Origin: a virus
Lineage: Duplodnaviria; Caudoviricetes
Length of the DNA: 52,955 bases
Direction: 5' to 3' (one strand)
Virus record (IMG/VR): IMGVR_UViG_3300050166_000081
Coordinates: 1 to 52,955 of that record
Both the position numbers and the translations under genes were made by a program. Under the pieces are notes generated by a model. The model searched no databases and was not told where the DNA came from. It saw only the letters and a list, made by a program, of their open reading frames with translations. Numbering within the stretch: the first letter of the stretch is position 1; the number at the start of each line of letters is the position of its first letter. This document shows, piece by piece, positions 20,565 to 52,914 of this stretch.

Positions 20565-20604
20565 AACATATTTTGTTTAAAATAAAACAAATTTTGTTAC
20601 TTTG
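20565..20604 (+). promoter_or_regulatory. Late-type promoter with two AACAWATTTTGTT boxes
   Basis: Boxes at 20565-77 and 20586-98 (21-bp period), followed by a -7-like TACTTTG. Confidence 0.7.
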
Positions 20605-20640
20605 TTGCATCTTATTTCCAAAAGAAACAAAAAACATACT

Positions 20641-22110
20641 ATGTCAGAGCAACTTATCACATCAAGGGTATTAAAAACGGTTCCAATAAAATGGGAAGAA
20701 TTACAATTTGTACAGCAAGAAAACTTCAAGGAGTGGAATAATAACGGCGATAAAAAGCTATTGGATTCAATACTAAAATATCAGTTTGTTGATCCATTTA
20801 AGGTTTGGGAAAGCGAAGGCAAGTTATATTGTTTAGATGGTCGCCACCGGTTCTTAGATTTACAGAAAGCAAAAGAAAGTGGCGTTGATGTTCCTGTTAT
20901 GCTTCCAGCTACTTTTATTGATTGTAGCAATATCAAAGAAGCTGCCGAATTGGTTTTGGTGTATTCATCTGCCTATGCAAAAATAACCCAACAAGGATTA
21001 CTTGATTTTGTACAAAATTTTGATTTGGATTTTCCAGAGATGCAATCGATGTTAAATATTCCTGAATTTGATGAAATTGCATTCCAGGGAATGTTGAATA
21101 ATTCAGGAAGCAATACTGAAAAAATAATTCCATCATCATTAAAAGATAGCTTTATTTTTCCTCCATTTTCTATTTTAGATACACGTTCAGGAGTTTGGCA
21201 AGAACGTAAGCGTAAGTGGGTAGAGCTTGGTTTTAATTCGCAAGAAACACGCGAAGATGTAGAATTGATTGCTAAAAGCGGTCAGTCAACAGGCATTTAT
21301 GAATTACGTAATAAAATGCGCGAATCATTACAGAGAGAGCCTAGCTGGGATGAAATTATAGATTATGCCAAACAAAAAGGAATGCACGTTTATGAAGGTG
21401 CGAGTATCTTCGATCCTGTTCTATGTGAATTGTCCTATCGTTGGTTTTGTACAGACGGAGGAAGAATACTAGACCCATTTGCTGGTGGGTCCGTTCGTGG
21501 TATTGTTGCTGGTGTACTTGGGTATCAATATGCTGGAATTGATTTGCGTTTGGATCAAGTGGAAGCGAACAGAAAACAAGCTTCTATTTTGGATGTTAAA
21601 AACGTAGATTGGTTTGATGGTGATAGCAATGAAGTGCTCGATGAGGTAGAATTCAAAGACTTCGACTTCGTTTATTCTTGCCCACCGTATGCTGACCTTG
21701 AAAAGTATAGTGACGACCCGAAAGACTTATCTAATATGGATTATGCCGATTTCAAAGAAGTTTACTTTTCAATCATTAAAAAATCAGTTGCTCAACTAAG
21801 ATACGACCGTTTTGCGTGTTTCGTTGTTGGTGATGTGCGCGATAAAAAAGGTTTCTATTACAATTTCGTGAGCGATACTATTCAGGCATTTAAAGATGCT
21901 GGAATGGAGTTATATAATGAAATAATTTTGGTTAACGTTGTCGGTTCCTTAGCGGTTCGTGTAAGGCGCCAATTCAATGGAGGTCGTAAGGTTGGTAAAA
22001 TGCATCAAAACGTTTTAGTTTTCTACAAAGGAGACCCAAAAAAGATAAAAGAAAACTTCCCAGAATTAAACATTGGAGATGATTTTGAAAATATAAATCA
22101 AGAAATATAG
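20641..22110 (+). CDS. ParB-like N-domain fused to an amino (N6-A/N4-C) DNA methyltransferase
   Basis: LDGRHR ParB-like motif; DPFAGGS motif I; CPPY motif IV; ATG 20641 preferred because the TTG start lies in the promoter. Confidence 0.85.
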   Translation: MSEQLITSRVLKTVPIKWEELQFVQQENFKEWNNNGDKKLLDSILKYQFVDPFKVWESEGKLYCLDGRHRFLDLQKAKESGVDVPVMLPATFIDCSNIKEAAELVLVYSSAYAKITQQGLLDFVQNFDLDFPEMQSMLNIPEFDEIAFQGMLNNSGSNTEKIIPSSLKDSFIFPPFSILDTRSGVWQERKRKWVELGFNSQETREDVELIAKSGQSTGIYELRNKMRESLQREPSWDEIIDYAKQKGMHVYEGASIFDPVLCELSYRWFCTDGGRILDPFAGGSVRGIVAGVLGYQYAGIDLRLDQVEANRKQASILDVKNVDWFDGDSNEVLDEVEFKDFDFVYSCPPYADLEKYSDDPKDLSNMDYADFKEVYFSIIKKSVAQLRYDRFACFVVGDVRDKKGFYYNFVSDTIQAFKDAGMELYNEIILVNVVGSLAVRVRRQFNGGRKVGKMHQNVLVFYKGDPKKIKENFPELNIGDDFENINQEI

Positions 22111-22161: not shown

Positions 22162-22398
22162 ATGGCAGAAACTAATTATCAAATACTTATTGAGATGAGA
22201 AATTCTATTATCGAATATTTAGAAGCAGAAAAAGAAATAAACGAAAAGGCATTAACTGCTTATGATCCAAAACCAATTCAGGATCAAGACGCAGAAATTA
22301 GAATAATGCGCGAGAAAGAGGCAATAAAACTCCGAGATAGGATAACTGAACTGTCCCGTCACATTTCGGTTATTAAACGAATGTTTCCCAATAATTAA
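22162..22398 (+). CDS. Small coiled-coil protein
   Basis: 78-aa helical ORF. Confidence 0.6.
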   Translation: MAETNYQILIEMRNSIIEYLEAEKEINEKALTAYDPKPIQDQDAEIRIMREKEAIKLRDRITELSRHISVIKRMFPNN

Positions 22399-22403
22399 TT
22401 AGC

Positions 22404-22856
22404 ATGGCAGGTATAAATAGAGCTTCAAAGCTGGAAACAGAAAAGCGTGTTTTTACTATTCAGGGCTGGATAATTAATGGGATTCAAGACTATTTAATCT
22501 TAAAAAATATTGAGCAGGAGTGGGGTGTTTGTAGACGCCAAAGTAAAAACTTACTTCAAAAGGCTTATAAAATTTGGCACGAGGACCAGGAAGCAACAAT
22601 AGAACAAAAAAGAGCTCTTCGCATAGCTGAATTAAAGCAAAACATTAGATCGATGAAAGAGCAGTATCGAGGTACTCCTCAAGGAATGACTGCTATAAAT
22701 CAAATTCAAAAGGAAATCAATAAACTAGAAGGCATTTATCCATCACGAAAGATTGTTCTCCAAGGAGATGAAGATAAGCCTTTAGTGATTAATAATTCTG
22801 CTGATAGAGAGTTAAGAATTAAGCAGTTGATTGAAAAGGCAACAAAAATAGGGTAA
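22404..22856 (+). CDS. terS: Terminase small subunit (putative)
   Basis: HTH-like N-terminus, INKLEG.Y and LQGDEDKPL tail; upstream of TerL. Confidence 0.75.
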   Translation: MAGINRASKLETEKRVFTIQGWIINGIQDYLILKNIEQEWGVCRRQSKNLLQKAYKIWHEDQEATIEQKRALRIAELKQNIRSMKEQYRGTPQGMTAINQIQKEINKLEGIYPSRKIVLQGDEDKPLVINNSADRELRIKQLIEKATKIG

Positions 22857-22877
22857 CTATTTTTTTGAATATTTAAG

Positions 22878-22918
22878 AACATATTTTGTTATGTATTAAA
22901 CATATTTTGTTACTTTTG
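22878..22918 (+). promoter_or_regulatory. Promoter of the RNA cluster with two AACATATTTTGTT boxes
   Basis: Boxes at 22878-90 and 22899-911; -7 TACTTTTG at 22911-18, 11 nt before tRNA-Met. Confidence 0.75.
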
Positions 22919-22929
22919 AAAAATCAAAT

Positions 22930-23002
22930 CGCGAGATAGAGCAGAGGCTAGCTCGTCGGGCTCATAACTCGAAGGTCGTGGGTTCGAATCCTACTCTCGC
23001 TA
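22930..23002 (+). tRNA. tRNA-Met(CAT), initiator type
   Basis: Full cloverleaf; C1:U72 mismatch; TCGGG-CTCATAA-CTCGA anticodon arm; TTCGAAT T-loop; no encoded CCA. Confidence 0.92.
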
Positions 23003-23116
23003 CTAAGTTGATTGGGGTCAACTTTAAACATAGTCACGTTCTTACAACAATTCATTCAAAGGATTTGGGATATTTTTTTACTTCGGGTTTTTATTATGTT
23101 TTCCGAAGTTTTTTAA

Positions 23117-23263
23117 GGCTAAGTGGCGGAATTGGTAGACGTAAAGGGTGGCATTTATGTCTAAAATTTATTCTTATTTACCAAAATAGAATAAACTAAA
23201 ACACTCTTCTAGATTGGTATATTCTAGTACTAAGATTTATAGGTTCGAATCCTATCTTAGCCA
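23117..23263 (+). ncRNA. 147-nt tRNA-like RNA: Leu-type scaffold with a structured insert replacing the anticodon loop
   Basis: Acceptor GGCTAAG/CTTAGCC+A; D-arm GCGGAATTGGTAGACGT; stem AAGGGTG/CACTCTT enclosing 51 nt; CTAGA/TCTAG variable arm; ATAGG-TTCGAAT-CCTAT T-arm. Confidence 0.8.
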
Positions 23264-23268
23264 CGAAT

Positions 23269-23386
23269 GCAGTTCGATTCTGCTCGCTTATTGAGAATTG
23301 GTATTTAAATGAGGTTCAATTCCTCCTCGCAAGTCGAGATTAGTAGCCCGTGGTATGGGTCAATATGACAGCTTGGAAAGACAAGC
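23269..23386 (+). ncRNA. Element with T-loop and D-loop mimic hairpins
   Basis: GCAG-TTCGATT-CTGC; TTGAG-AATTGGTA-TTTAA; GAGG-TTCAATT-CCTC; GCCCG-TGGTA-TGGGT; GCTTG-GAAAGA-CAAGC. Confidence 0.55.
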
Positions 23387-23391
23387 AAAAT

Positions 23392-23474
23392 TGAAGTGAT
23401 GGTAAATGTGGTTAAATCAGCAGACTGTAAATCTGTCGCTTTCAGCTTTGGGGGTTCGATTCCCTCCACTTCAA
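23392..23474 (+). tRNA. tRNA-Tyr(GTA), atypical
   Basis: TGAAGTG/CACTTCA acceptor; GCAGA-CTGTAAA-TCTGT anticodon arm; long variable arm; GGGGG-TTCGATT-CCCTC; U1:A72 and A8 are non-canonical. Confidence 0.85.
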
Positions 23475-23478
23475 CAAC

Positions 23479-23670
23479 AAAAGTAATTTATGCCGATAAG
23501 TCGGAACATCGAACTTTCTGGTCTTGTAGAATGGGTCATTAAATCATTCGGTGATGTGCGGATTGTAAGTTTGGCGCATAGACAATTTGGATCGTATGGC
23601 GTTAGGATTGAAAGCTTTAACATTTTCTGCTAATTCAATCCTTATAAAAAACCAGATGTAAATTACTTTT
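23479..23670 (+). ncRNA. Candidate ~190-nt multibranched structured RNA
   Basis: 12-bp terminal stem AAAAGTAATTTA/TAAATTACTTTT; internal TCTGGT/ACCAGA, CCGA/TCGG, GAATG/CATTC, TGTGCG/CGCATA, AGGATTGAA/TTCAATCCT; no ORF in the track. Confidence 0.6.
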
Positions 23671-23684
23671 TTTAATCTAAAATC

Positions 23685-23834
23685 ATGATTGAAATATCAA
23701 ACGGAAAAATTTTTATTGATGGTATAGAAACAACCAATCCAGAATTAATCGGTTTGGCTTTACTTGATTTTGCAGAGGAACAGGCAGAAGATGATTCTAA
23801 GATAATTCTAATTGATGGCGAAATTGAAAACTAA
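23685..23834 (+). CDS. 49-aa acidic protein (not in ORF track)
   Basis: MIEISNGKIFIDGIETTNPELIGLALLDFAEEQAEDDSKIILIDGEIEN; AT-rich initiation region; 6 nt before the next ATG. Confidence 0.6.
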   Translation: MIEISNGKIFIDGIETTNPELIGLALLDFAEEQAEDDSKIILIDGEIEN

Positions 23835-23840
23835 AATTAT

Positions 23841-24092
23841 ATGCTAAAAAAACTCAAAACAGTTTCGCTAAAAAGACTAATTCTTTTGACTGAAAAAAGA
23901 AGAAAGCAGCGTCTAATTAATTCCTATATAGAAACTCACAATCTTAATGATTTAGAGGAGCAAAGGCACATCATATCTCAATATAATTTAATGCATGAAA
24001 GCAAAAGGTATTTTTGTAGAAAGTACCGAGAGGAGTTGCAGGAAAAAGTAAGTTTCATGATAAGACATGAAATAATTAAGGTTAAAGTATAA
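23841..24092 (+). CDS. Basic hypothetical protein
   Basis: Abuts the TerL start. Confidence 0.6.
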   Translation: MLKKLKTVSLKRLILLTEKRRKQRLINSYIETHNLNDLEEQRHIISQYNLMHESKRYFCRKYREELQEKVSFMIRHEIIKVKV

Positions 24093-25541
24093 ATGCTAAC
24101 TGACAAAGAAATATTAGAACTTGAAACCCTTTTGAAAGAAAGGGAAATTGATATTTCACGCAGTAGGCTGACCAACTTTGACGAAAATACTAATCCAAAC
24201 TACGAATTCCTTCATTCGGCAATTCTTCAACAAAACTACAACGAGCGAGGAGAATTGATTAGCGGTTTCCGTGGATGTGCACTAGAAGGTTCCTCTCGTT
24301 CTGGAAAAACTTGGTCCGGTGTAGATTTAATAGTTTGGCTTTGCTTATATGTTGAAGAAAGCTGCACTATAAATATTTACAGACAAACTTATAACGAGTT
24401 TAAGACTACTCTTTATGATGATTTCAAAAGAAGGCTAGATGATTACGGACTTCCAAATCCATTTCACAATGCCAAAGAGGTTAAGAGTTTTAGAATTGGT
24501 AAAAGCACTATTTATTTTCTTGGAGATGGAAAGCATGGTGGAGGATGTGATTATGCTTTTTTCAATGAAATTATGTTTATCAATCAATCTGTTTTTGACC
24601 AGACAGAAATGCGTTGTAGAAAGTTTTGGTGGGCTGATTATAACCCGAGCGTTACCGAGCATTGGTTTTTTGATAAAGTTCTTACAAGGCCTGATGTTGG
24701 ATTTTTACGCACAACTTACCTTGATAACAAATTCGTATCTGTTCAGGAACGCAACAAAATATTATCATACGATCCTTGGAAACCAAACTCTTATATCGTC
24801 AAAAATAATGTTGTTTGTTGTTACAATCCATTAACTAAAAAAGTAGAACCGGTTTCAAAAACAAATCAACCGCCACCACACCCTACAAATATTCAAAACG
24901 GTACAGCAGATGAGTTTATGCATAAGGTTTATGCTCTAGGATTACGTGGTGCAATGAAAGGAATTATTTTCCCTTTTGTAGAATATATTGATAAATTCCC
25001 AGACCATGTAGCCCACATACATGCCAATGACTTTGGATTTACTACAGATCCAAATGCTTTAGTAAAATACGCTGAAGATGAATATAATATATGGGTTGAG
25101 CTTTTATGTTATGAACCTATTGAAACTCCAGATGAGCTTTCCAATTTATTAGAAGCCTTAAACATTGAGAAATCATTGCCTTTGCCTTGTGATAGTTCAG
25201 ATAAGTATACGGGTGAAAATAAGGGAACCGTTGAAATGGTCAAAGGACTTAAAAGCAAAGGATGGAAAGCTTTTAAAATCAGTAAAAATAAAAGTGTAAT
25301 GTATTGGCTTGGTTCGATGAAGCAAAAGAAAATACACATTGTTAAAAATCATTTGTATTCCCATGCTAAAAAGGAGCAAGAAAATTATAGAATGAAAGAA
25401 ATTAATGGAATTGCAATAAACCAGCCAATTGATAAATTTAATCACTTCTGGGACGCAACTCGTTATGGTCACATGGCATATAACAATAAGTCTAGAACTT
25501 ACGAAATGAGCGAAGAAGAAAGTAAAAATATAACCTATTAA
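24093..25541 (+). CDS. terL: Terminase large subunit (PBSX/SPP1-like)
   Basis: Walker A GSSRSGKT, Walker B FFNE, DYNP coupling motif, DFGFTTDP and DKFNHFWDATRY nuclease motifs. Confidence 0.93.
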   Translation: MLTDKEILELETLLKEREIDISRSRLTNFDENTNPNYEFLHSAILQQNYNERGELISGFRGCALEGSSRSGKTWSGVDLIVWLCLYVEESCTINIYRQTYNEFKTTLYDDFKRRLDDYGLPNPFHNAKEVKSFRIGKSTIYFLGDGKHGGGCDYAFFNEIMFINQSVFDQTEMRCRKFWWADYNPSVTEHWFFDKVLTRPDVGFLRTTYLDNKFVSVQERNKILSYDPWKPNSYIVKNNVVCCYNPLTKKVEPVSKTNQPPPHPTNIQNGTADEFMHKVYALGLRGAMKGIIFPFVEYIDKFPDHVAHIHANDFGFTTDPNALVKYAEDEYNIWVELLCYEPIETPDELSNLLEALNIEKSLPLPCDSSDKYTGENKGTVEMVKGLKSKGWKAFKISKNKSVMYWLGSMKQKKIHIVKNHLYSHAKKEQENYRMKEINGIAINQPIDKFNHFWDATRYGHMAYNNKSRTYEMSEEESKNITY

Positions 25542-25549
25542 AAAGAATT

Positions 25550-26965
25550 ATGGAATTATTAGAATTACTAAAAACGGACCCGTCATCAGCTATAAATAAA
25601 ATTAAAGCTCAGACAAAAGACATTAAAAAAATCGATGACTATATCAAAGAATACAAAGACTTTGACAGAAAGCAAAGAGAAGGTCAAATTGAAAAAATTC
25701 AAATTGATAAAGCATTAGGTGACGGCAAGATGTCGAAAATGGTAAAAATATATTTAAACCACGCTCAAAACATTGTTGAAACTTTGGCGGCTTTTGTTAT
25801 TGGAAACCCAGTCACTTTAATTCCTTCTGAAAACAATGACTTAGCTAAGTTGGTGAAACAAATTTGGCGTGTAAACAGAATGGATTCTAAATTATTAGAA
25901 GCTACTATTTTAAAGTTTTCTCAAACCCAAGTAGCGGTTCAGTTCTATATTGAGGACAGTGGAAAAACATCTTTGCTAAATAAAGTATTGGCATTTCTTG
26001 GTATGAAAACACAAGCTAAGGAAATAAAAGCGAAAGTACTTGACAACACAAAAGGAATTATGACGCCTTATTTTGATGTAAGCGGAGACATGATAGCGTT
26101 TATGTGGGAGTACAAATCTAGTGAGGATGGGAAAGACCTTAGCAACGTCCAAATTTGGGACCAAAACAATTACTACTATTTAAACAATAAAGACGGAGGA
26201 TTTATACTTCAATCAAATCCAATTCCTCACGGTTTTGATAGAATACCAGTAGTGTATGATTATCAAAATGAACCACAATGGTATACTGTTAGATCCGCAG
26301 TTGATAGACATGAAGTTGCTTTGTCAAAACTTGGTGATGCAAATGATTATTCTGGACACCCTATATTATTAACTTATGGTGAGGTTAAGACTATGCCTTT
26401 GAAAGAAGAAAGTGGTAAGCATTTTAATATTCCAATAACTATCGATGATGAGGGAAAAGAGGTAAAAGGAGATGTGAAATTTTTGGAGTCCACAACAGCA
26501 CCAGAAAGTAATAAGTTAGAATTAGACAAGTTGGAAGATGCAATTGCATACGGTTCTGGAGTGCCTAATTTATCATTAGATAAGTTAAAATCATTAGGGA
26601 ATGTTGCTGAAAAAACGGTTAAATTAATGTTTTTGGCTACAAATGTAAAGGCTTCTTTAAAGCAATTGGAAACAAAAACCTTCATCGAAAGATGTTTGAA
26701 CATCATTATATCAGGAATAACTCAAACAACCAATACTGCATTTTCAAAAGAAGGATCTGCTTTATATTATGATATTCAATTTAATTCAATTTTACCGTCG
26801 GATATAAAAGAAACAGTTGATGTACTTACTTCGGCTGTTCAAAGTAAAATCATAAGTCGTAAAACATCTGTTGGAATTTTGGATTTGGTCGAAGATGTTG
26901 ATGCAGAATTGAAATTAATAGAAGAAGAAAGCCCAGTACAACCAATTACTACATCAGCTCTATAA
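25550..26965 (+). CDS. Portal protein (SPP1 gp6-like)
   Basis: PHGFDRIPVVY, DANDYSGHPIL, KLMFL, FNSILPSD; follows TerL. Confidence 0.92.
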   Translation: MELLELLKTDPSSAINKIKAQTKDIKKIDDYIKEYKDFDRKQREGQIEKIQIDKALGDGKMSKMVKIYLNHAQNIVETLAAFVIGNPVTLIPSENNDLAKLVKQIWRVNRMDSKLLEATILKFSQTQVAVQFYIEDSGKTSLLNKVLAFLGMKTQAKEIKAKVLDNTKGIMTPYFDVSGDMIAFMWEYKSSEDGKDLSNVQIWDQNNYYYLNNKDGGFILQSNPIPHGFDRIPVVYDYQNEPQWYTVRSAVDRHEVALSKLGDANDYSGHPILLTYGEVKTMPLKEESGKHFNIPITIDDEGKEVKGDVKFLESTTAPESNKLELDKLEDAIAYGSGVPNLSLDKLKSLGNVAEKTVKLMFLATNVKASLKQLETKTFIERCLNIIISGITQTTNTAFSKEGSALYYDIQFNSILPSDIKETVDVLTSAVQSKIISRKTSVGILDLVEDVDAELKLIEEESPVQPITTSAL

Positions 26966-51540: not shown

Positions 51541-52701
51541 TTAAAGTGCTGGGGAGTTTTCTAAAATATTTTTTCGGTGAACTTCTTTAACAACTCGCGC
51601 ATATTTTTCAGTCATCAAACGGGATGTGTGGCCATAAAGCTCACGCAAGCTATCGATTTCCAATCCAGCAAGTATCTTTCTATCCGCACCTAAATGTTTC
51701 ATTGCGTAAAGATTCATATTAATTCCAAGGCCTTTTTTAACTATTGTTTCCCATCTTCTGGTGGCAGTATCTCGATTAATTTTAGTTGGTCCTGAAATGA
51801 AGTCATTAAATTTTCCAATGTTGCCTTTTCCCGGTTCTCTAAAACTACCAAATAAATAATAATCATTCGGTAAATTTTCAAAATTCATTTTTCGATAGTA
51901 TTCCATTAAATGTTGGTTTATCGGAACAATTCTTTTTCTTTTTGTTTTTGTAATTTCAGCTGGAAGAATTATTTCACTGTTTTTTAAATCAACCATTGCT
52001 AGATTAATTTTTGTAATTTCTTCTGGTCTAATTCCAGTGTGAAAAATCGTGATCACAAAATTATAAAAGTCAGGATGTTTTGCCTCAAGCTCCTTTTTTA
52101 TTTTATTTACATCTTCAACACTTGCTGGTTGGTTCGCATCGCTTTCAGAAACAGGTAAATTTTTAATAGTATGTGCTGGATTGGTTTCTATAATATCCCA
52201 TTGTAAAAGTTCGCTTAAAACCGCTTTTAAATGGTTGAGGTGTTTATTGTATGCATTATTAGACCATTTACGTTGTTCTTTAGCTTTATTGATGATTAGC
52301 CTTATATGAACTCGCTTAACTTCAGTTATTGGCAAACTTTCAAATTCAAGTTTTTTAATGGCTTCTTTTACAAATTTAATTGTCCCATTGTAGCCAGAAA
52401 TTGTTTTGGAGCCCAAGTTTGGAGATTTTTTTTCCATTGCAAAATCTAAAGCCTTTCCAATAGTTAAATCCGTTTGTTCTTGAATTACATCTGGGATAGT
52501 TGGATTCCAACCTTCCTTAAGTTTTTCGTGCAAAGCATCACGAAGCAAATTAGCTTCTTTCTCGCGTTTTTTTAAATCTGTAATATAATTTATTCCGTAT
52601 TTATATCGGAATAGAACCTTGTTATATCTAAAATAGACAAACCAAGGCTTAGAAAGATCATCATATTTGACAACCTTTGGAGTAGAGTAGATTGATTTCA
52701 T
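51541..52701 (-). CDS. int: Tyrosine integrase
   Basis: HTGIRPEEI (R), KTK (K), YAMKH (degenerate HxxR), LYGHTS..MTEKY (H, Y); adjacent to att/tRNA; ATG 52701 preferred. Confidence 0.95.
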
Positions 52702-52786
52702 TTTAATTGTTTTTAAATTAAAATGTTTGAGGAAGACTTTAATCAATCAAAGAGTTTTGTACTCTTTTTGTTCACTTTTATTCTAT

Positions 52787-52822
52787 AAAAAACGGGAAGC
52801 CTATATTTTACAGTACTTCCCG
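52787..52822 (-). terminator. Phage-supplied terminator downstream of tRNA-Ser
   Basis: CGGGAAG/CTTCCCG stem followed by T6 on the minus strand. Confidence 0.6.
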
Positions 52823-52826
52823 ATTT

Positions 52827-52843
52827 CAGCGGAGAAAGAGGGA
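52827..52843. repeat. att core, right copy
   Basis: Identical to 111-127. Confidence 0.95.
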
Positions 52844-52914
52844 TTCGAACCCCCGGACCTGTTACAGTCAACAGTTTTCAAGACTGCCGCATTCGACCGC
52901 TCTGCCATTTCTCC
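52830..52914 (-). tRNA. Host tRNA-Ser(TGA), integration target
   Basis: Reverse complement GGAGAAATGGCAGAGCGGTCGAATGCGGCAGTC-TTGAAA-ACTGTTGACTGTAACAGGTCCGGGGGTTCGAATCCCTCTTTCTCCG; long variable arm. Confidence 0.97.

Follow-up and report, generated by a model that had tools for sequence, protein, structure and literature searches.

A modular island of tRNAs, tRNA-like genes and a new structured RNA family upstream of the packaging genes in phages of Flavobacterium-type hosts

An array of RNA genes at the packaging locus

This study focused on the interval 22857-23684 of the virus record IMGVR_UViG_3300050166_000081 (positions 1-52,955; 52,955 bases; Duplodnaviria; Caudoviricetes), the whole of which is referred to here as the window. 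The interval runs from the stop of a 150-amino-acid (aa) open reading frame (ORF), at 22856, to the start of a small gene, orf49, at 23685, and every RNA feature within it lies on the + strand. It is a real, accessory and modular array of RNA genes, the anatomy of which is firm, and its site is a recombination hot spot immediately ahead of orf49 and the genes for the large terminase subunit (terL) and the portal protein. This RNA island consists of six co-oriented modules: a tRNA-Met, a spacer with two hairpins, a tRNA-like RNA of 147 nucleotides (nt), an RNA designated R2, a tRNA-Tyr and a structured RNA designated R1. The features are as follows.

22879-22918, + strand: promoter-like motif, ACATATTTTGTTA occurring twice, 21 nt apart
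22930-23003, + strand: tRNA-Met(CAT), initiator type (ARAGORN; Rfam tRNA model, 59.3 bits)
23005-23024, + strand: hairpin AAGTTGA/TCAACTT, directly 3' of tRNA-Met
23080-23114, + strand: terminator-like hairpin ACTTCGG/CCGAAGT with T-run
23117-23263, + strand: 147-nt tRNA-like RNA (Rfam tRNA model, 35.5 bits; gathering score 29)
23266-23391, + strand: R2, an RNA of ~126 nt
23392-23475, + strand: tRNA-Tyr(GTA), divergent phage type (ARAGORN; Rfam tRNA model, 36.1 bits)
23479-23673, + strand: R1, a structured RNA of ~195 nt

Positions 22300-24200 were compared by BLAST with 80 related viral loci (numbered with the prefix L; terL 61-99% identical). Most were found via terL, and the set contains the near-duplicate pairs window/L082, L001/L003, L039/L040 and L092/L095. 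Occupancy was surveyed in those 58 viral loci that extend 2.5 kb or more upstream of terL. An orf49 homologue is present in 52 of these and R1 in 32, orf49 occurs without R1 in 21, tRNAs called by ARAGORN are found in 25 and elongated tRNA-like genes in 17, and 14 carry no RNA gene. The 14 relatives lacking any RNA gene, together with the 21 in which orf49 lacks R1, show the island to be accessory and dispensable in this lineage.

A preliminary description of this DNA had listed the tRNAs, the hairpins, a 147-nt tRNA mimic, a D/T-loop element, an RNA of ~190 nt and two small ORFs, all of which were found where it had placed them, and its statement that the interval holds no credible ORF was also borne out. 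ORFs of 30-73 aa are present and none is conserved; the two that were tested (73 and 47 aa) match no PHROG family. The 47-aa ORF (23490-23633) was rejected as a gene, its frame being open only in the near-identical L001, L003 and L082 and interrupted by stops or frame shifts in the more distant homologues of L029, L005, L041, L044, L034 and L047.

R1 is a new RNA family

The last module, R1, is a new RNA family with strong covariation and is not protein-coding. Positions 23476-23776 are conserved at 65-75% in many of the 80 related loci (BLAST), and R1 folds as a five-way junction of 51 base pairs (bp). Its closing helix, P1, has 13 bp (23479-23491 with 23658-23670), and is followed by a U-tract within a T-rich tail. 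Four stem systems lie inside it. One is a short hairpin whose GATAAG loop is invariant, and another is a two-tier hairpin whose internal loop, TTAAATCATTC, is likewise invariant; a third hairpin and a long arm of three tiers, variable at its tip, complete the set. About 50 positions are invariant, many of them unpaired.

In a MAFFT alignment of 19 sequences, 24 of the 38 pairs predicted by RNAalifold are compensatory. When P1 was added by hand, 93.5% of the cells in this alignment pair, compared with 31-45% when the columns are slid by 1-3 positions; two-sided changes occur in 31 of the 51 pairs, and the observed values were not attained in any of 500 shuffles. With 39 distinct sequences, two-sided changes are seen at 43 of the 51 pairs, and the share of paired cells is 93.7%; this larger alignment was fitted to the covariance model and leans towards it, while the MAFFT test is independent of the model. 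The covariance-model match in the window spans 23471-23682 (202.6 bits), the model including ~16 flanking columns. Rfam 15 gave no match to the + strand of 23476-23684 at E values up to 10, none to R1 at the gathering score in the window, and none at E up to 1 in seven relatives. No description of R1, R2 or the tRNA-like RNAs reported below was found in a literature search of open-access papers and bioRxiv.

The covariance model detected R1 in 39 of 82 sources (40 matches) and in 8 of 32 further sources, which include prophages of the cultured Flavobacterium sp. ZT3R17, F. cupreum CCM 8825 and Flavobacterium sp. P3160 and 1355. Two of 151 sampled Flavobacterium genomes carry it, one of them being the chosen centre. 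An IUPAC pattern derived from two conserved parts of R1 was tried as an unbiased survey of R1 contexts and discarded as unspecific: it matched 29 viral stretches, of which 19 were new and only one (L116) was R1 according to the model, and two matches checked visually proved to be coding sequence.

R1 is an optional module of the island and usually the last one. A T-arm with 3' acceptor strand ends no more than 27 nt before the start of the R1 model in 29 of 43 loci (a manual count from the listing; the looser criterion of a script gave 31), and in the other 14 no recognisable tRNA-like 3' end lies within that distance. The gene preceding R1 varies, and may be a tRNA for Tyr, Met, Leu(TAG), Ala, Trp, Cys or Lys, or an unconventional tRNA-like gene. 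On the other side, an orf49 homologue begins 3-49 nt after the end of the R1 model in 26 of 43 loci and 177-914 nt after it in 15, and is absent from two. One genome was found by the R1 model only; in it, tRNA-Lys(TTT) ends 5 nt before R1 and orf49 follows, and the terminase of this prophage is not detectably related to that of the window.

The two tRNAs

Both tRNAs score above the gathering score of 29 for Rfam RF00005, and their anticodons are CAT and GTA (ARAGORN). The defining feature of a bacterial initiator tRNA is an unpaired 1:72 position, and a further criterion is a run of three G-C pairs at the base of the anticodon stem. The cmscan alignment marks the 1:72 pair of the island's tRNA-Met (C opposite U) as non-standard; in the anticodon stem of this tRNA, GGG lies opposite CTC, giving G-C, G-U and G-C. 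The tRNA-Tyr has the same anticodon loop as the host tRNA-Tyr and differs from it by one base in the anticodon stem, while the D-arm, variable arm and acceptor differ. This phage type of tRNA-Tyr was also found in six relatives.

The 147-nt tRNA-like RNA and elongated tRNA-like genes of relatives

The RNA at 23117-23263 is not called by ARAGORN, and in the Rfam alignment 72 nt take the place of the anticodon arm. It is composed of an acceptor stem, a Leu-type D-arm, an 'anticodon' stem of 6-7 bp, a long variable arm and a T-arm, with an insertion of ~47 nt, bearing its own hairpin, followed by a loop remnant CTAAAAC. The stem AAGGGTG/CACTCTT encloses about 50 nt, and since there is no 7-nt loop closed by a 5-bp stem, this is not a canonical tRNA. 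It derives from tRNA-Leu: an 18-mer of its D-arm occurs once per genome, inside tRNA-Leu(CAA), in 3 of 3 Flavobacterium genomes, and on alignment to host tRNA-Leu(CAA) the segments CTAAAAC and ACTCTT fall opposite the anticodon loop CTCAAAC and the 3' stem strand, the extra ~47 nt lying between the 5' stem strand and the loop.

A homologue in L006 (L006:3000-3141) shares an identical 34-nt block comprising the loop remnant, the 3' stem strand and the long variable arm. The acceptor stems (GAATAGA/TCTATTC in L006, GGCTAAG/CTTAGCC in the window) differ by two-sided changes in 4 of 7 pairs, and the T-stems by two-sided changes in 2 of 5. Both inserts hold a hairpin of 10-12 bp with ACCA in the loop, despite their different sequences. 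The compensatory changes between the two RNAs show the tRNA-like fold to be under selection. The element is also carried by the prophage of one isolate, the contigs of which cover 22400-23265.

Two other identities were considered for the insertion and set aside. A short ATG frame within it, which might have been a tag like that of transfer-messenger RNA (tmRNA), varies in length and sequence among the window, L082 and L006. The core of a group I intron takes about 200 nt or more, with P3-P8; the ~47-nt insertion is too short for one and has no Rfam intron match. As for tmRNA itself, G3:U70 is the alanine identity element, and position 3:70 of the 147-nt RNA is C3:G70, which is not an alanine-type acceptor; ARAGORN called no tmRNA in the window, and Rfam gave only a 6.7-bit fragment.

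Relatives bear tRNA-like genes of 96-161 nt with the acceptor stem GGGGAAG/CTTCTCC, in which position 3:70 is G with T; the window has none. They carry a tRNA-Ala-type D-arm, with insertions in the D-loop, a long helix replacing the anticodon arm, or both. A script search found this type in 17 of 81 sources, among others at L004:2617-2732, L012:2587-2693, L024:3039-3152, L041:2122-2244, L044:2648-2770, L011:536-638, L001:1023-1126, L050:1972-2071, L091:2106-2237 and L148:4555-4654. ARAGORN called none of them except the shortest (82 nt, in L020), which it named tRNA-Leu(tag). Among elongated genes in 15 loci, nine exceed the Rfam tRNA threshold, seven of these having the GGGGAAG acceptor, and three of the GGGGAAG-type RNAs match tmRNA end to end at 20.6-27.8 bits, below the gathering score of 47. 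Bacterial tRNA-Leu normally has a long variable arm. ARAGORN also reported tRNA-Leu(TAG) genes of 74-75 nt with a Leu-type D-arm (L034:2436-2509, L050:2139-2212, L052:2341-2414, L116:2305-2378 and L085:1444-1518), a length too short for such an arm.

R2, an 'elbow' RNA

R2 begins with a T-arm-like hairpin, followed by a D-arm (loop AATTGGTA) that abuts a second T-arm, and then by another three hairpins, of which the last has a GGAAAGA loop. The two T-arm hairpins and the D-loop-like AATTGGTA lie at 23266-23340. The D-arm and second T-arm constitute a tRNA 'elbow' without an anticodon arm. Scans of the window gave R2 no Rfam match, and it is 84.6% identical to sequences in the Cellulophaga phages phi19:3 and phi13:2. 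These phages are from another virus family, and the sequences flanking R2 in them are unrelated to those of the window; in phi19:3 it is unannotated and lies directly 3' of tRNA-Cys. When the island was compared with cultured phages by blastn, only tRNA matches and R2 were returned, and no R1 at that sensitivity. Further copies occur in L149, L151 and L152, the last of these following tRNA-Trp. At L151:4789-5113, R2 stands between two Leu-type tRNA-like genes with enlarged anticodon arms, a second case of R2 within a tRNA-like array.

In an alignment of five sequences, 90.3% of cells pair, sliding lowers this to 36-56%, and two-sided changes are found at 6 of the 25 pairs. The preliminary description had named a lack of conservation in the intervening sequence as grounds for its refutation; those grounds fall away for R1 and R2, which are both conserved and structured.

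Mosaicism and mobility

The modules have been swapped between phages at tRNA borders. In L001 and L003, with flanks 94-95% identical to the window, a different tRNA-like gene of 104 nt replaces 23140-23470; in the isolate's prophage, 48 other bases replace 23266-23364; and the last hairpin of R2 (23366-23391) travels with tRNA-Tyr in L004, L009, L020 and L044. The joints fall at module borders: 23139/23471 (L001, L003), 23265/23365 (isolate prophage) and 23366 (L004, L009, L020, L044). Positions 23140-23365 have almost no matches among the 80 relatives, and the spacer 23025-23079 is conserved only in close ones.

The whole cassette has also moved into another phage. In L082, tRNA-Met through R1 is present at 97% identity between unrelated genes, with no relative of orf49, terL or portal at that locus. 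A Tad2-like (Thoeris anti-defence 2) gene (L082:8916-9170, minus strand; PF11195, E 1e-23) lies ~30 nt downstream of the cassette, with RusA nearby.

Flanking genes, hosts and relatives

The genes on either side of the island, and those at the end of the record, are as follows.

22404-22856, + strand: 150-aa ORF upstream of the island, earlier 'terS' (label by position only)
23685-23834, + strand: orf49, a small acidic protein of 49 aa, first gene 3' of the island
23841-24092, + strand: orf83, a small basic ORF abutting terL (from the ORF list)
24093-25541, + strand: terL (phrog_2, E 3e-23; Terminase_3, Terminase_6N)
25550-26965, + strand: portal protein (phrog_64, E 3e-51; SPP1_portal, E 2e-36)
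51541-52746, minus strand: integrase (Phage_integrase)
52829-52914: tRNA-Ser(TGA) (ARAGORN)

The phage is temperate, siphovirus-like and of Flavobacterium-type (Bacteroidota) hosts. Relatives of its terL were found in genomes of Flavobacterium, Chryseobacterium, Myroides, Tenacibaculum and other Flavobacteriales, and the sequencing runs that contain the stretch are freshwater metagenomes and one isolate. The integrase adjoins tRNA-Ser(TGA) at the end of the record (51541-52914), an arrangement consistent with a prophage excised at its attachment site. The nearest cultured phage is Cellulophaga phage Nekkels_1 (terL 60%), which is without R1 and in which terS abuts terL.

The 150-aa ORF had been taken for terS. 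That label is putative and reflects position only; the ORF has no Pfam match, no terminase PHROG match and no similarity to the annotated terS of Nekkels_1. The ORF is kept in relatives at 65-78% DNA identity; its PHROG matches are weak (phrog_34910, of unknown function, E 2.4e-4; phrog_645, with an RNase E label, E 7.8e-3), and the nearest named Atlas clusters (HTH_23, score 0.91) offer a weak helix-turn-helix (HTH) lead only.

On the other side of the island, orf49 has no Pfam or PHROG family and no usable Atlas match, and orf83 likewise has no Pfam or PHROG family. The stop of orf83 lies one base before the terL ATG at 24093. L006 has instead a single ORF of 115 aa (L006:3650-3997), the N-terminus of which matches orf49 (E 5e-12), with a weak match between its middle part (residues 24-67) and orf83 (E 0.002). 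In the window (23685-24092), orf49 and orf83 share one frame and are separated by one TAA and two codons. A read-through fusion of the two was considered and rejected, since only the window, L001 and L003 show the two genes so arranged and what lies downstream varies among relatives. The Rfam DUF805b RNA motif was found ~3-4 kb downstream of the terL start in relatives (L037:7929-7960, L041:7249-7280, L091:7042-7073 and L034:7549-7580; 38-40 bits, above the gathering score) and had no match in the window when scanned at the gathering score.

Promoter-like motif and transcription

The island is preceded by two copies of ACATATTTTGTTA, the second extending as ...GTTACTTTTG, which contains the box TAnnTTTG, presumably the -7 box of Bacteroidota. 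Four positions (22879, 22900, 27502 and 41647) carry the 13-mer ACATATTTTGTTA without a mismatch, and two (20566 and 20587) differ from it at one base; at up to two mismatches there are 13 matches against 7.95 expected. The extended form AGAACATATTTTGTTAC[AT]TTTG precedes three gene blocks, namely the RNA island and two later blocks. The one-mismatch pair (20566-20599, again 21 nt apart) is directly 5' of a 502-aa ORF (20602-22110) encoding a ParB-like/N6 DNA methyltransferase. A consensus scan for promoters gave three promoter-like sites against 6.4 expected, using a sigma-70 model that is ill-suited to Bacteroidota.

A motif search of the window found no copy between R1 and terL, so the packaging genes are probably read through the island from the same promoter. 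The preliminary description had spoken of a dedicated RNA operon with a late-type promoter. No promoter motif parts the RNAs from orf49-terL, and a dedicated operon is conjectural; the promoter itself draws its support from the recurrence of the motif before other gene blocks, and 'late-type' goes no further than that.

Two hairpins occupy the spacer after tRNA-Met. The hairpin at 23005-23024 reads AAGTTGC/GCAACTT in L082, a two-sided change that keeps the pairing, and that at 23080-23114 is conserved in L001, L003 and L082. A terminator consensus scan limited to loops of 3-8 nt gave no sites; the hairpin at 23080-23114 was missed by it because its loop has 16 nt. P1 of R1, regarded as a terminator stem, is A+U-rich and encloses an interior of 165 nt, and T-runs follow both P1 and the hairpin at 23080-23114.

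RNA and DNA coverage was judged from contigs rather than reads. One metatranscriptome contig, of depth 2.4, matches 23023-23116 at every base and then continues at 23471 in the manner of L001; it weakly suggests that transcription passes across the first hairpin. The high depth of the RNA run over 22912-23039 is uninformative for this phage because it comes from related, differing tRNA-Met sequences.

A possible RNA cassette acting in trans

On balance, and with the odds slightly in its favour, the best explanation of the whole is a modular RNA island made as a single precursor, processed at tRNA borders and active in trans. The island would be transcribed from the motif at 22879-22918 as one precursor running into orf49-terL. 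Host RNase P and RNase Z would then cut at the tRNA and tRNA-like units, freeing the non-tRNA RNAs with defined ends; R1 would begin a few bases beyond the tRNA that precedes it and stop in the U-tract downstream of P1, and its ends would be paired, as in other stable RNAs. The freed RNAs may act in trans on host translation or on tRNA-directed systems, the tRNAs replacing or supplementing those of the host and the tRNA-like RNAs and R1 serving as partners or decoys.

Processing at tRNA borders is plausible, given the border geometry and the fact that RNase P and RNase Z are known to act on multimeric precursors as well as on phage RNAs that are not tRNAs. The use of tRNAs as punctuation, proposed in the preliminary description, agrees with the start of R1 close to a tRNA-like end (29 of 43 loci) and with the replacement joints 23265/23365 at tRNA-like ends, an agreement that is one of geometry. 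The case for a counter-defence role is circumstantial, and consists of the Tad2-like neighbour in one locus together with the literature on phage tRNA-Tyr and tRNA-Lys, both reported as targets of nucleases. The tie proposed in the preliminary description to terminase and portal as defence triggers is speculative. A bolder version of the trans-acting RNA island is conceivable but unlikely. According to it, the tRNA look-alikes would be a deliberate class of RNAs that can be aminoacylated and do not decode, forming with R1 and R2 an RNA-only toolkit, set free by tRNA processing late in infection, that could bind or divert synthetases, ribosome-rescue factors or tRNA-cleaving defence nucleases; this would be a novel way of phage takeover or counter-defence. 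The look-alikes that could be typed have either the GGGGAAG acceptor (17 loci; alanine, tmRNA-like type) or a Leu-type D-arm (five: the window's 147-nt RNA, L006, L049, L044 and L151), and each has an ornate helix in place of the anticodon arm. All of these typed look-alikes derive from tRNA types, those of leucine and alanine, whose synthetases ignore the anticodon.

Several observations weigh against the trans-acting, processed island. The hairpin and T-run at 23080-23114 could stop transcription after tRNA-Met and so split the 'operon', and the depth-2.4 contig from the RNA library could be DNA carry-over. With no tRNA-like end before R1 in 14 of 43 loci, punctuation cannot be the sole route to its 5' end. 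The invariant loops of R1 have no antisense target in the window beyond two-mismatch matches at chance level. Homologues of the 147-nt element fall into just two distinct types (that of the window and that of L006), and since R2 is represented by five distinct sequences its structural support is only moderate. The counts of genomic context are biased because the loci were mostly anchored on terL relatives. Finally, the placement of orf49 3-49 nt after R1 in 26 of 43 loci fits a leader RNA equally well.

The main rival follows from this last point: R1 may be a cis-acting leader of the orf49-terL-portal mRNA (a riboswitch-like or protein-controlled attenuator, an antiterminator or a 5' stabiliser), with P1 and the U-tract as the decision point and the tRNAs as cargo exploiting the same promoter. 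This is a serious possibility, if a doubtful one. The spacing to orf49 is matched by the conserved T-rich tail directly before that gene and by the lack of a promoter motif between R1 and terL; orf49 follows R1 even in the prophage with a terminase not detectably related to that of the window, the ~50 invariant, often unpaired positions suggest binding of a ligand or protein, and in L082 R1 is again upstream of co-oriented genes. However, in that same locus it is the tRNAs, rather than orf49, that accompany R1; orf49 in 21 of 58 relatives occurs without R1, directly after a tRNA (as in L004 and L013), while in 14 of 43 loci by one tally (15 by another) the gap between the two is 177-914 nt, and R1 matches no Rfam riboswitch or leader family.

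It is distinctly unlikely that the 147-nt element, R2 and the spacer are functionless, a residue of decaying tRNA genes and recombination scars. Such decay would suit the mosaic, fast-changing arrays, in which L001 and L003, with flanks 95% identical, hold a different tRNA-like gene of 104 nt, 23266-23364 is replaced in the isolate's prophage and 23140-23365 is nearly unmatched among 80 relatives, and it would account for the T-arm-plus-acceptor-like fragments in R2. Yet the 147-nt element and its L006 homologue keep acceptor and T-stem pairing through two-sided changes, both inserts retain the 10-12-bp hairpin with its ACCA loop while their sequences have changed, and R2, at 84.6% identity in Cellulophaga phages of another family, shows two-sided changes in its helices. 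Highly improbable is a role of the ~195-bp element as DNA, whether as a packaging site (pac or cos) or as a protein-binding site beside the terminase genes. Nearly all loci do lie just upstream of packaging genes, with a terS-like gene further upstream, but 43 of 51 pairs change on both sides with Watson-Crick or G-U pairing kept on one strand, many of them G-U, which is the signature of an RNA fold, and in L082 the element is away from any terminase gene.

Comparison with known systems

Phage tRNA islands with companion RNAs are already known, and it is the R1 family itself that is new. T4 makes two extra stable RNAs from its tRNA cluster. PMC11143913 describes dimeric precursors of T4 tRNAs and a 'catalogue of tRNA-like molecules' in T-even phages, and states that phage RNAs other than tRNAs, among them the C4 antisense RNA, are RNase P substrates too. 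The T-even tRNA region is like the island in its co-oriented tRNAs, and in its multimeric precursors cut by host RNase P, a step that for the island is inferred. The island differs in belonging to a temperate siphovirus-like phage of a Bacteroidota host, in lying in the leader of the packaging genes, and in having companion RNAs (R1, R2 and the Leu-derived RNA) that share no Rfam sequence family beyond the tRNA model.

GOLLD and ROOL are likewise structured RNAs of unknown function; R1, at ~195 nt, compares with an average of 581 nt for ROOL, and it matches neither family. In organelles, tRNAs or tRNA-like structures (t-elements) define the ends of neighbouring RNAs, according to PMC1920247, whereas for the island such punctuation is argued from border geometry. 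The likeness to tmRNA lies in the GGGGAAG-type RNAs of relatives and not in the window, a long helix replacing the anticodon arm; unlike tmRNA, the window's 147-nt RNA has C3:G70 and a Leu-type D-arm, and it lacks both pseudoknots and a conserved tag frame.

Recent work connects the tRNA genes of phages with evasion of immunity that cleaves tRNAs, and their travelling companions have been little studied. Phage tRNAs, particularly tRNA-Tyr and tRNA-Lys, overcome Retron-Eco7/PtuAB, Septu and PARIS, as reported in PMC10264068, PMC11555353, PMC11464382, PMC12673091 and PMC13096335. These defence-neutralising tRNAs have been linked to defence systems; for the phage of the window such a role is hypothetical, and its tRNA-Tyr keeps the host anticodon loop, unlike the loop mutations described in PMC10264068.

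The RNA biology of Bacteroidota phages is poorly known, and against this background the island presents RNA modules that move from phage to phage as cassettes whose borders are tRNA ends, and tRNA-derived RNAs with rebuilt anticodon arms in which the acceptor, D- and T-arms are still under selection. If these RNAs are processed and active, the means of phage counter-defence or translation control would extend to tRNA mimics and ornate RNAs in Bacteroidota phages, and the prophages of culturable Flavobacterium that carry R1 make this testable at the bench.

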